A DNA stretch of 64,000 nt. It comes from Escherichia coli (GTDB taxonomy: Bacteria; Pseudomonadota; Gammaproteobacteria; Enterobacterales; Enterobacteriaceae). Numbering within the stretch: position 1 is the first letter of the stretch; every line of letters begins with the position of its first letter. The notes under the pieces were generated by a model. That model was not told the origin of the DNA. It did not search any database and was given only the letters and a program-made list of their open reading frames with translations. The stretch lies in the NCBI RefSeq assembly GCF_022846255.1, contig NZ_AP025682.1. The stretch is one strand, 5' to 3'. The translations under genes and the position numbers were made by a program. Below are positions 37,023-44,576 of this stretch, one piece after another.

Positions 37023-38312
37023 ATGAGCACCGCTTTGCTTGACGCCGTGGTGAAGAAAAACCGTGCGCGTTTAATTCCGTTTATGTTGGCGCTGTATGTG
37101 CTGGCGTTTCTCGACCGTTCGAATATCGGTTTTGCCAAACAGACCTACCAGATTGATACCGGGCTGAGTAATGAAGCTTATGCGCTGGGAGCAGGCATTT
37201 TCTTTGTGGTATATGCGTTTCTGGGTGTTCCGGCGAATCTTTTGATGCGCAAACTGGGGGCAAGAACCTGGATTGGTACGACAACACTGCTGTGGGGATT
37301 TCTTTCGGCAGCCATGGCATGGGCCGATACTGAAGCGAAATTTCTGATCGTTCGTACTCTGCTTGGTGCTGCGGAGGCCGGGTTCTTCCCTGGTATGATT
37401 TATCTCACCTCGCAATGGTTTCCGCAGCGTAATCGCGCCAGCATTATGGGGCTGTTCTATATGGGCGCACCGTTGGCGTTAACACTGGGATCACCGCTTT
37501 CCGGCGCGCTGCTGGAGATGCATGGATTTATGGGGCATCCCGGCTGGTTCTGGATGTTTGTGATTGAAGGATTGCTGGCAGTCGGCGCTGGGGTATTCAC
37601 ATTCTTTTGGCTTGATGACACGCCGGAGCAGGCACGTTTTCTGAGTAAAGAAGAAAAAACGTTGCTTATCAACCAACTGGCAAGTGAAGAACAACAGAAA
37701 GTGACTTCTCGATTGAGCGATGCGCTGCGTAATGGCCGAGTCTGGCAACTGGCGATTATCTACCTGACCATTCAGGTGGCGGTTTACGGATTAATTTTCT
37801 TCCTGCCGACGCAGGTTGCTGCATTGTTGGGGACAAAAGTGGGCTTTACGGCGTCGGTGGTCACCGCCATTCCGTGGGTCGCGGCCTTGTTTGGGACCTG
37901 GCTTATTCCGCGCTATTCCGATAAAACCGGCGAGCGGCGTAATGTCGCGGCGCTGACATTACTGGCGGCAGGCATTGGTATTGGTCTCTCCGGGCTGCTT
38001 TCTCCAGTACTGGCGATCGTTGCGCTGTGTGTTGCAGCCATCGGGTTTATTGCCGTACAGCCAGTGTTCTGGACGATGCCGACACAGCTTCTTTCCGGTA
38101 CGGCGCTGGCTGCGGGGATTGGTTTTATAAACCTGTTTGGTGCAGTGGGCGGGTTTATTGCCCCGATCCTGCGCGTGAAAGCAGAAACGTTATTTTCCAG
38201 CGATGCGGCGGGATTACTGACGCTGGCAGCGGTGGCGGTCATCGGTTCGCTGATTATTTTCACTCTGCGTGTAAATCGCACTGTTGCGCAGACCGACGTG
38301 GCACATCATTAA
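37023..38312 (+). CDS. rhmT: MFS transporter, putative L-rhamnonate transporter
   Basis: ORF 36984..38312; ATG at 37023 gives 429 aa with 12 predicted TM segments. Confidence 0.85.
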   Translation: MSTALLDAVVKKNRARLIPFMLALYVLAFLDRSNIGFAKQTYQIDTGLSNEAYALGAGIFFVVYAFLGVPANLLMRKLGARTWIGTTTLLWGFLSAAMAWADTEAKFLIVRTLLGAAEAGFFPGMIYLTSQWFPQRNRASIMGLFYMGAPLALTLGSPLSGALLEMHGFMGHPGWFWMFVIEGLLAVGAGVFTFFWLDDTPEQARFLSKEEKTLLINQLASEEQQKVTSRLSDALRNGRVWQLAIIYLTIQVAVYGLIFFLPTQVAALLGTKVGFTASVVTAIPWVAALFGTWLIPRYSDKTGERRNVAALTLLAAGIGIGLSGLLSPVLAIVALCVAAIGFIAVQPVFWTMPTQLLSGTALAAGIGFINLFGAVGGFIAPILRVKAETLFSSDAAGLLTLAAVAVIGSLIIFTLRVNRTVAQTDVAHH

Positions 38313-38328
38313 ATAGTTAAGGAACACG

Positions 38329-39132
38329 ATGAACGCATTATTAACCAATCCCTTTAAAGAACGTTTACGCAAGGGCGAAGTGCAAATTGGTCTGTGGTTA
38401 AGCTCAACGACTGCCTATATGGCAGAAATTGCCGCCACTTCCGGTTATGACTGGTTGCTGATTGACGGGGAGCATGCGCCAAACACCATTCAGGATCTTT
38501 ATCACCAGCTACAGGCGGTAGCGCCCTATGCCAGCCACCCCGTGATCCGTCCGGTGGAAGGCAGTAAGCCGCTGATTAAACAAGTCCTGGATATTGGCGC
38601 GCAAACTCTACTGATCCCAATGGTCGATACTGCCGATCAGGCACGTCAGGTGGTGTCTGCCACGCGCTATCCTCCCTACGGTGAGCGTGGTGTTGGGGCC
38701 AGTGTGGCACGGGCTGCGCGCTGGGGACGCATTGAGAATTACATGGCGCAAGTCAACGATTCGCTTTGTCTGTTGGTGCAGGTGGAAAGTAAAACGGCAC
38801 TGGATAACCTGGACGAAATCCTCGATGTTGAAGGGATTGATGGCGTGTTTATTGGACCTGCGGATCTTTCTGCGTCGTTGGGCTACCCGGATAACGCCGG
38901 GCACCCGGAAGTGCAGCGAATTATTGAAACCAGCATTCGGCGGATCCGTGCTGCGGGTAAAGCGGCTGGTTTTCTGGCTGTGGCTCCTGATATGGCGCAG
39001 CAATGCCTGGCGTGGGGAGCGAACTTTGTCGCTGTTGGCGTTGACACGATGCTCTACAGCGATGCCCTGGATCAACGACTGGCGATGTTTAAATCAGGCA
39101 AAAATGGGCCACGCGTAAAAGGTAGTTATTGA
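38329..39132 (+). CDS. rhmA: 2-keto-3-deoxy-L-rhamnonate aldolase (HpcH/HpaI family)
   Basis: 267 aa ORF; cluster context. Confidence 0.88.
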
Positions 39133-39172
39133 TATCAAAGGCCCATGGGGATCGGCTGTGGGCCTGTGTTAA

Positions 39173-39346
39173 TTAGTGGTTATTCGCTGCCAGATCGGCT
39201 TCGCTTAGCTGAGTGGCCGCGAGCACCTGATCACGATCAATGCCCTGCTCCAGCATGCGCAAAGCAATTTTAATGGCTTGTTCATGCATGCCTTCCTGCC
39301 AGCCAATTTGATGTCCTTCCTGCCGTAGCCGTTCAGCAATAGTCAT
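39173..39346 (-). CDS. ypaA: ypaA: free-standing 57-codon ORF that duplicates the C-terminal tail of RpnE/YfaD (annotated as a pseudogene fragment in K-12, as I recall)
   Basis: 39173..39358 is a direct repeat of the yfaD 3' end (39359..39601 minus the WQEGKLEG repeat); retains AAAAGGAGAG Shine-Dalgarno and ATG at 39346; below the size cutoff of the ORF track. Confidence 0.6.
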   Translation of the reverse strand: MTIAERLRQEGHQIGWQEGMHEQAIKIALRMLEQGIDRDQVLAATQLSEADLAANNH

Positions 39347-39358
39347 TAATCTCTCCTT

Positions 39359-40318
39359 TTAATGACCGTTCGGAATATCAGCATCAGTGAGTTGGGTTGT
39401 CGCCAGCACAATCTCACGTTCAAAGCCCTGTTCCAGCATGCGCAAGGCAATTTTAATGGCTTGTTCATGCATACCTTCTACTTTGCCTTTCTGCAAACCC
39501 TCCAATTTCCCCTCCTGCCAGCCTTCTAATTTACCTTCCTGCCAGCCAATTTGATGTCCTTCCTGCCGCAGCCGTTCAGCAATAGTCATTAATCTCTCCT
39601 TTTGTAGTGGTGAACGTTCGGCAATCTCCTCAATAAAACGGGTGAAACGGGAGGTATCGCCGCATTGCAGCAGATAATTAAACAGCGTTTGTAGCTGGCT
39701 GTCATTAGTGAAGCCTCTAACCAAAAGCGTGGTAATCCTGTCGACCATACCGATTAAATCGCGGTCGCGAATATGCTTTTGAATCAGTTCCAGCAGAGCT
39801 ATACGCCGATGTTGCATGATCTCATCGTCAGGTACGATGGTGATATCCACCAACGGAAAAGCTTCGGTGTACAACTGCCGGGCAAGTTGCGGATCGTCAA
39901 ACTCATCCAGCCAGTTGAGTGAGTACGGGTAGGGCGAGGTTTCGCCATGATAAAACAGCAATGGTACCACCAGCGGAACTCTGTCATAGCCTTTATCCAG
40001 GTGACGTTGCATGGCGGCAGTGGCATAGCGCATTAGTCGAAAAGCCATATTCTTTTCTGCAGAACTTTGATGTTCAATCACGCAGTAGATATAGCCGTCA
40101 CCGTCGCTGGTTTCCACCGACCACAAAACATCCGAGTAGTAAGCGCGTAAACTTTTTTCAATAAAGCTGGTGGGTTCCAGGCGTAAGGTTTGCAGGTTGC
40201 AAAGCTTGCGCAGCGGCTCTGGCAGATGTATTTCGAGAAAATCTCGCGCCGTATCGGGCGAGAACATAAAGGTTTTAAATACCGCATCATGCGGGGAGGA
40301 GGTTGTTGATTCGGTCAT
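39359..40318 (-). CDS. yfaD: Rpn-family recombination-promoting nuclease (YhgA-like, PD-(D/E)XK) RpnE/YfaD
   Basis: 319 aa [25 protein letters not shown]...; C-terminal WQEGKLEG tandem repeat; start may be a downstream Met. Confidence 0.85.
39489..39560 (-). repeat. Intragenic tandem repeat in rpnE encoding [16 protein letters not shown]
   Basis: repeated cctgccagcc / ttcctgccagcc units on the + strand. Confidence 0.7.
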
Positions 40319-40511
40319 GGTTGTCCGTCACCTGATGTTTATGATGACGCGACATTACGGTTATCCCAGGCCTTTGACATCTGCCAGTTTCAGCCTTTGC
40401 GAGACGTTTTCAGAGGAATTTTCACTGCGTTGCAACGTATACATTGAGCGCGGAATCGTGGACGCAAAAATGCCCGGTAACAACATGCTTACCGGGCATC
40501 AGATGGGAGTT

Positions 40512-44576
<4,065 letters not shown>

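Follow-up and report, generated by a model that had tools for sequence, protein, structure and literature searches.

The stand-alone gene ypaA of Escherichia coli is a conserved tandem copy of the rpnE internal small-protein cassette, with a repeat number unmatched to that of its neighbor in the loci sampled

Organization of the rpnE-ypaA locus

The locus described here is flanked by glpC and yfaU within a 64,000-nucleotide stretch of an Escherichia coli genome (RefSeq assembly GCF_022846255.1, contig NZ_AP025682.1; hereafter, the window), and comprises rpnE (yfaD), a smaller ORF nested in frame inside it (RpnE-S), and ypaA, a separate ORF with its own Shine-Dalgarno (SD) sequence directly downstream of rpnE, as found for RpnSs genes (Table 1). 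The internal ATG corresponds to rpnE codon 244, the sole in-frame ATG of the gene with a strong SD; it follows AAAAGGAGAG after a 6-nt spacer, and its predicted product of 76 residues ends in IPNGH. The ATG of ypaA lies 12 nt past the rpnE stop, with both ORFs in the same frame, and the TAA stop of rpnE (39359..39361) is embedded in the SD of the copy, the first two A's of the ypaA AAAAGGAGAG belonging to the stop codon. An original prediction, made from the sequence alone, had located both starts and their identical SD sequences, the lengths of the two small products and the stop inside the second SD; all of these were confirmed.

The two cassettes share a 70-nt direct repeat and a further 102 nt of copy-versus-copy similarity at 81% identity, and the repeat search also returned 24-nt tandem units inside rpnE. 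The duplication had been described as spanning the final ~130 bp of the RpnE-S region; the duplication itself stands, but its extent does not, as the cassette is copied in its entirety, from SD and 57-nt head through tail to stop. Likewise, YpaA does lack the repeat, although what is missing is not one WQEGKLEG element but five 4-aa units (20 residues, 60 nt); in addition, YpaA carries one extra residue and differs from RpnE-S at 10 of 56 aligned residues, the remaining 46 (82%) being identical. Counting both strands, the 64-kb window contains the sequence AAGGAGAG only four times, two of these at rpnE-ypaA, and the arrangement of repeats and SD sequences at the locus is far beyond chance. By these features, ypaA is a tandem copy of an SD-plus-ORF cassette, and an old one, given the divergence of the tails and the two-copy layout in other Escherichia described below.

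No match was returned by an Rfam search of positions 37500-42000, and no sigma-70-like internal promoter was found at the locus by a simple consensus scan; an internal promoter has been reported there from dRNA-seq data (Zhong et al., 2023; PNAS, PMC10400941). Because the only terminator-like site found near the locus by consensus scanning, the hairpin at 39139..39165, is situated downstream of ypaA, this gene is probably co-transcribed with rpnE/rpnE-S.

Table 1. Features of the rpnE-ypaA locus in the window (positions of the 64,000-nt stretch)
Feature	Position	Strand	Basis or remark
rpnE (yfaD) CDS, RpnE-L, predicted full-length Rpn-family nuclease	39359..40318	minus	319 aa; ORF list, NCBIfam NF007418
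PD-(D/E)XK / Transposase_31 N-terminal domain, aa 8-209	39692..40297	minus	Pfam PF04754, E=1e-87
rpnE-internal Shine-Dalgarno AAAAGGAGAG for in-frame ATG 39589 (Met244)	39594..39603	minus	sequence
RpnE-S ORF, in frame within rpnE, 76 aa plus stop	39359..39589	minus	ORF list
RpnE-S head	39533-39589	minus	
RpnE-S repeat array, five 4-aa units (12 nt each), hypervariable	39473..39532	minus	repeat search, tandem 24-nt families
RpnE-S S-type tail	39359-39472	minus	
ypaA Shine-Dalgarno AAAAGGAGAG	39351..39360	minus	overlaps last two bases of rpnE TAA stop
ypaA (= rpnE-Ss) ORF, 57 aa, zero repeat units	39173..39346	minus	ORF list
ypaA head	39290-39346	minus	
ypaA Y-type tail	39173-39289	minus	
70-nt direct repeat, downstream arm	39291..39360	minus	99% identity, spacing 243 nt
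70-nt direct repeat, upstream arm (SD + RpnE-S head)	39534..39603	minus	repeat search
GC-rich terminator-like hairpin between convergent ypaA and yfaU	39139..39165	none	consensus scan only

RpnE-L as a predicted Rpn-family nuclease

Full-length RpnE (RpnE-L) scored 707 bits against the RpnE equivalog model of NCBIfam (NF007418; cutoff 583). Its residues D11, D63, E82, Q84, R94 and D165 are collinear with functionally tested positions of RpnA, whose active-site residues were defined by Kingston et al. (2017); thus, equivalents of RpnA D11, D63, E82, Q84 and the PDDE residue D165 are all present, and Met244 coincides with the internal start of RpnA. PADLOC 2023, a set containing no Rpn model, gave only a weak "putative invertase" match, and a phmmer search of full-length RpnE against the PDB returned nothing relevant. 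On the domain and equivalog scores and the collinear residues, rpnE is predicted to encode a Rpn-family PD-(D/E)XK nuclease. Full-length RpnE may be toxic, by analogy with its paralogues. Among the paralogues, however, only K-12 RpnE gave no activity on overexpression when assayed for recombination, toxicity and SOS induction (Kingston et al., 2017). In those assays, K-12 RpnE was co-expressed with RpnE-S.

Fold and family of YpaA and RpnE-S

The internal start of RpnE-S, at Met244 and behind its own SD, is of the kind that defines RpnS proteins. A profile built from 36 tails matched the RpnA-S entry of the PDB (7TH0; E=3e-6), and these tails share an identical N-terminal start with RpnA-S. 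The AlphaFold2 model of the window YpaA (pLDDT 79) contains helices at residues 3-33, 38-45 and 49-54, and its best Foldseek match in the PDB was again 7TH0 (probability 1.0, TM 0.76, 45% identity); the weaker neighbors below it were HTH repressors at E>1. The RpnA-S-like fold was recovered for YpaA, the protein on which the comparison was made, and RpnE-S is 82% identical to it over aligned residues.

Furthermore, YpaA aligned to the C-terminal positions 244-308 of the NCBIfam RpnE model and to positions 244-291 of the RpnA model (E=3e-8). Our Pfam-A scan of YpaA gave no significant match, DUF4351 included, with a library without PF27070; precomputed Pfam assignments place this family (PF27070, HTH_Rpn_C) on both YpaA and the RpnE C-terminus. 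The ypaA product is modeled as having the fold seen in the RpnA-S crystal structure.

Correspondence with the published locus

The locus is the published E. coli rpnE-ypaA in a non-K-12 allele, and the internal start, its small protein and the status of ypaA as a second copy are already known from papers of 2019 and 2023. In all five rpn genes, in-frame internal starts were marked by Ribo-RET peaks, and the rpnE internal product was noted to resemble the independent gene ypaA (Meydan et al., 2019; bioRxiv 10.1101/520783). Subsequently, peaks with both Onc112 and retapamulin were described at the K-12 rpnE and ypaA starts, RpnE-S and YpaA were both detected as SPA-tagged proteins in K-12, and YpaA was renamed RpnE-Ss, with an inferred origin from RpnE (Zhong et al., 2023; PMC10400941). 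Start mapping by these two inhibitors and epitope tagging, which the original prediction had proposed as checks, had thus already been carried out in K-12 with positive results. The same study solved the RpnA-S structure, reported HHpred similarity to HTH motifs, and named deletion and fusion, in one sentence, as routes to the loss of downstream copies (Zhong et al., 2023; PMC10400941). Our literature search found no paper on ypaA later than this one.

Regarding the paralogues, RpnS proteins block the toxicity, SOS induction and DNA cleavage of RpnL by complex formation, as reported for RpnA, RpnB, RpnC and the plasmid-borne RpnP2, the last of which protects against T-even phages (Zhong et al., 2023; PMC10400941). 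The background given in the original prediction, that Rpn proteins are PD-(D/E)XK nucleases, antagonized by small C-terminal proteins made from internal starts, agrees with these published cases. In the paralogues, RpnS binds to the matching RpnL tail, and specificity depends on how many 4-aa repeats helix 1 contains: RpnC-S with one extra repeat inhibits RpnC-L only if RpnC-L carries the same extra repeat, and RpnA-S and RpnB-S display no cross-inhibition (Zhong et al., 2023; PMC10400941).

The window and K-12 agree in the position of the locus, with glpC and yfaU as its neighbors, and in its layout of a gene within a gene plus a downstream small gene, with identical SD sequences, start codons and Met244; the alleles differ in length, K-12 having 299, 56 and 61 aa for RpnE, RpnE-S and YpaA (0 and 1 repeat units in the two small proteins), versus 319, 76 and 57 aa in the window (5 and 0 units). 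The closest relative of the window was strain 2017.09.02CC (99.8% identity). To the published work we add the intactness of ypaA, the selection acting on it, its presence in outgroups and the 7TH0 match; otherwise, the locus mainly confirms that gene-within-gene biology is recoverable from raw sequence.

Distribution and conservation of ypaA

The rpnE locus was matched in 5,420 of 5,426 complete E. coli genomes. For the analysis of alleles, 18 loci were taken from an even spread of these matches, with 14 two-copy loci constituting the unbiased set, and further loci were gathered by exact-protein look-up of YpaA alleles, a route that admits only loci in which the queried YpaA allele is intact. 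Outside E. coli, the two-copy layout was found adjoining glpC in E. fergusonii and in a cryptic Escherichia clade, with RpnE of 319 aa and YpaA of 65 aa in the former, and 299 and 73 aa in the latter.

The ORF, SD and ATG of ypaA were intact in all 14 unbiased two-copy loci, with no stop or frameshift, the gene was likewise intact in the other two-copy loci of the sample, and its SD was conserved in every locus sampled; at the internal start, the 15 upstream nucleotides were kept in 48 of 50 loci, the rest showing one spacer variant. No stops occurred among stand-alone ypaA alleles, whose polymorphisms (19 synonymous, 15 nonsynonymous) correspond to a pN/pS of 0.23 (binomial P=2.7e-5 versus neutrality), a signal to which gene flow from genomes carrying this tail inside RpnE could contribute in part; for RpnE-S, the value was tighter (0.06). 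Against E. fergusonii and the cryptic clade, the dN/dS of ypaA ranged from 0.06 to 0.22. Taken together, these values indicate purifying selection on ypaA, in E. coli as well as in E. fergusonii and the cryptic Escherichia clade.

RefSeq gives the orthologous gene the name rpnE, and PGAP calls ypaA "incomplete; missing N-terminus" in most genomes, the resulting RefSeq label being that of a pseudogene fragment. Since ypaA passes the selection test, this label is misleading. Public annotation of the locus, with ypaA as a pseudogene fragment and rpnE as a transposase, is outdated.

Repeat numbers and mosaic structure of the two copies

The number of 4-aa units varied from strain to strain, as in RpnS proteins, with 0, 2, 5, 6 or 8 units in RpnE-S and 0-8 in YpaA-type sequences. 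The combinations observed (RpnE-S, YpaA) were (0,1), (0,4), (0,5), (2,5), (5,0), (5,1), (5,2), (6,2), (6,4), (6,5), (8,1) and (8,4). Repeat numbers were matched in none of the 50 two-copy loci and in none of these 12 haplotypes, in a sample that is partly biased, some loci having been chosen because they encode an intact copy of a particular YpaA allele; the window (5,0) and K-12 (0,1) are two instances, and the mismatch of 0 versus 5 units in the former amounts to 20 aa of helix. YpaA does not, therefore, carry the repeat number of its resident RpnE that the RpnC rule asks of a cognate inhibitor, and the repeat numbers of RpnE-S and YpaA clearly do not co-vary as this rule predicts, bearing in mind that it was established for RpnC with a one-unit change only and may not apply to RpnE. 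Selection against matched numbers was also considered and dropped as unproven, 12 unmatched haplotypes of 12 having a non-significant probability of about 0.29 under independent marginals. A neutral explanation of the missing matches is available, as with matched arrays the copies would share a longer unbroken stretch of homology, and the duplication would be less stable.

Comparison of the copies revealed a mosaic. From the SD through the 57-nt head to nucleotide 51 of the tail, the copies have synonymous polymorphisms in common and no fixed differences, whereas the last ~60 nt of the tails are deeply diverged (tail dS 0.45-0.78 between copies, dN/dS about 0.2). In the corresponding last ~20 residues, differences are fixed and paralogue-specific, each type being conserved from E. 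coli to E. fergusonii. This pattern would indicate two maintained specificities, not redundancy. Ongoing gene conversion of the heads within genomes was rejected, as within-genome distances were not below between-genome distances (permutation P=0.97); homogenization of the heads is thus a population-level process, or reflects constraint, and recent concerted evolution is undetectable. The Y-type arrays of some alleles are identical to S-type arrays found elsewhere, as is the case for P0029 and the RpnE-S of the window.

Single-copy loci with a fused tail

The Y-type tail was present at ≥90% identity in 5,396 of 5,426 genomes (99%), and a full-length S-type tail in 3,144 of 5,426 (about 58%). 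Among 30 evenly spaced matches, 12 were single-copy, and these fall short by exactly 243 nt, apart from differences in repeat units, a length equal to the spacing of the 70-nt repeat. In about 40% of E. coli genomes, then, a deletion between the identical heads has fused RpnE to the YpaA-type tail. Every single-copy allele that was read encodes an intact RpnE with a Y-type tail and 0, 2 or 4 units, and the fused alleles include those of O157:H7, an O6 strain, an APEC O78 strain and a goat isolate. Given the two copies in E. fergusonii and the cryptic clade, the simplest reading of the fused state is that it is derived, by head-to-head deletion. In APEC strain L067, the small ORF inside rpnE has 100% identity to the 57-aa YpaA of the window. 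The fused state shows that a YpaA sequence can serve as both RpnE C-terminal domain and intragenic small protein.

Discussion

The rpnE-ypaA locus poses a puzzle, in that ypaA is conserved and expressed, yet never matches the repeat number of its neighbor. The original prediction proposed that YpaA is a functional extra dose of cognate antitoxin, which would bind RpnE-L as RpnE-S does and raise the level of inhibitor. That ypaA is functional, and not dead, is favored by the selection check across genomes (pN/pS 0.23, intact in 14/14). Translation of YpaA in K-12, its RpnS fold and purifying selection would all suit an extra dose, as would the near identity of its first 19 residues and of the next 17 tail residues to RpnE-S, and K-12 RpnE, accompanied by two small proteins, is the only paralogue that is non-toxic on overexpression, as extra inhibition predicts. 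The cognate part of the proposal runs against the evidence, since no match was found among the 50 loci (0 versus 5 units in the window), RpnC inhibition was lost when the repeats differed by one unit, the fixed differences of the last ~20 residues predate the split of E. coli and E. fergusonii, and a single copy is all that about 40% of genomes have; a simple extra dose is consequently unlikely. The RefSeq view, according to which ypaA is the dead fragment of a partial duplication and has no function, can point to the PGAP label in most genomes and to the unmatched YpaA in the Pfam-A library used, but it is largely refuted by the intact ORF, SD and ATG in 14/14 unbiased two-copy loci and in other Escherichia species, by the selection signal (pN/pS 0.23, P=3e-5), and by detection of the K-12 protein through SPA tagging and initiation profiling, and we regard it as extremely improbable.

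Two other readings accept that ypaA is maintained, and differ in what is maintained. If ypaA mattered as DNA only, as a spare tail cassette for the RpnE C-terminus whose free protein has no role, the deletion product with a Y-type tail in RpnE in about 40% of E. coli genomes, the homogenized heads, and the identity of Y-type arrays with S-type arrays of other strains (P0029, window RpnE-S) would be expected; second-order selection alone, however, would not keep the SD, the start and a low dN/dS over Escherichia divergence, and YpaA protein is made, so that this reading seems quite unlikely. Alternatively, YpaA may have diverged to a separate job, for instance as a small regulator of the locus that binds DNA in HTH-like fashion, or by inhibiting another (foreign or recombinant) Rpn nuclease. 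Its paralogue-specific and conserved C-terminal helices are consistent with this possibility, as are the HTH repressors among the weak fold neighbors below 7TH0 and the HTH similarity obtained with HHpred by Zhong et al.; the HTH fold matches lie at E>1, though, and RpnA-S and RpnB-S do not cross-inhibit, which leaves a separate job very unlikely.

We lean, at slightly better than even chances, towards a YpaA whose specificity differs from that of RpnE-S, in preference to the unlikely extra dose, because its repeat number varies independently and is never matched, and because its last ~20 residues are paralogue-specific. Under this preferred reading, RpnE-S would be the cognate inhibitor of RpnE-L, pairing with it through helix 1, and YpaA would be an RpnS-type helical dimerization protein of another specificity, not the same antitoxin. 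In the tandem layout, a single deletion between the ~70-nt identical heads would also replace the RpnE tail, the repeat number and the intragenic small protein by their YpaA versions, all at once. The head-to-head deletion event itself is well supported; that the tandem copy is selected for permitting this one-step tail replacement is a tentative and rather doubtful proposal, and it is with similar reserve that we picture ypaA as a second-specificity small protein that doubles as a pre-assembled replacement tail. If true, an antiphage-type system would gain a one-step change of toxin-antitoxin specificity, and the presence of the YpaA-type tail in 99% of genomes versus an in-gene S-type tail in about 58% would be explained. 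The role of the stand-alone copy and the replacement of a tail by its duplicate both bear on how Rpn systems diversify their specificity.

Several known systems share traits with this locus. RpnA-L/RpnA-S (7TH0) has the identical N-terminus of the small protein, a long helix followed by two short helices, the internal start at Met244, and conserved D11, D63, E82 and Q84; conversely, RpnA-S lacks repeat units and is not followed by a stand-alone copy, and RpnA displays toxicity and in vitro DNA cleavage, in contrast to RpnE, for which published assays have so far revealed no activity. The rpnC gene is followed in some E. coli by rpnC-Ss, also an independent stand-alone copy of the small gene with 4-aa repeat variation; this copy arose separately, from RpnC, and is found in some strains only, in contrast to the Y-type tail of the rpnE locus in 99%. 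Finally, by analogy, type II toxin-antitoxin systems with an extra or orphan antitoxin also have a small helical protein that neutralizes a co-transcribed toxic enzyme by direct binding, which YpaA or RpnE-S may resemble, and a further shared trait is that in some lineages the toxin decays while the small gene survives. They differ in that the Rpn antitoxin is the C-terminal domain of the toxin itself, produced from an internal start, and for this reason Rpn toxin and antitoxin co-vary by construction; an extra copy of the Rpn small gene escapes this coupling.

Small ORF conservation and annotation

In several strains the small ORF was found intact although rpnE had decayed (L017, and the rpnE region of loci L024, L025, L027 and L041): rpnE was interrupted by IS2, frameshifted, split into parts of 61+252 aa, or had lost an internal segment. 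Loss of the toxin with retention of the antitoxin is the typical pattern of toxin-antitoxin loci. Across the evenly spread E. coli loci L001-L018, RefSeq/PGAP treats ypaA in most genomes as the fragment of a pseudogene, tagged 'incomplete; missing N-terminus', and labels rpnE 'ISNCY family transposase'. Both labels are at odds with published evidence, according to which the YpaA protein is expressed and Rpn genes are not transposases.

Coordinates of features at the rpnE-ypaA locus
Feature	Locus	Position
rpnE	window, minus strand	39359-40318
ypaA region	window, minus strand	39173-39358
RpnE-S 5-unit array	window	39473-39532
FliH-model and Yae1_N matches	window	39473-39567
GC-rich hairpin between convergent ypaA and yfaU	window	39139-39165
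Decayed rpnE with intact small ORF	L017	1500-2132
yfaU/yfaV absence or truncation (window ~38329-39132)	L061/L062	2740-3300
	L063/L064	2937-3320
	L024	1715-2240
	L067 (APEC strain)	765-1226

Divergence and repeat arrays of the two copies

Meydan et al. (bioRxiv 10.1101/520783) described YpaA as 98% identical to the RpnE internal product, whereas in the sequences extracted from K-12 (L001) 46 of 56 aligned residues were identical, with a further difference of one 4-aa unit plus one more residue. In some Y-type (ypaA) alleles (P0029, P0045 and P0047) there is a 5-unit array identical at the protein level to the RpnE-S array of the window. Since the RpnE alleles adjoining them have 0, 2 or 6 units, these sequences imply that arrays pass from copy to copy or from strain to strain. 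A length change of another kind was observed in P0014, a 76-aa YpaA variant from a 5.1-Mb E. coli genome, in which the same 11 residues occur twice as an internal duplication rather than as 4-aa units.

Downstream boundary of ypaA

The rhamnonate genes yfaU/yfaV, direct neighbours of ypaA, are missing or truncated in E. fergusonii, in a cryptic Escherichia clade and in some E. coli, and thus the 3' side of ypaA constitutes an indel boundary. A consensus scan identified the hairpin on this side as the sole terminator-like site near the rpnE-ypaA locus, and this predicted terminator could act in both directions. Regarding the repeat region itself, profile searches returned weak matches to FliH models and Yae1_N, which seem to reflect the composition of (hydrophobic)-x-E/K-G helical repeats and not homology.
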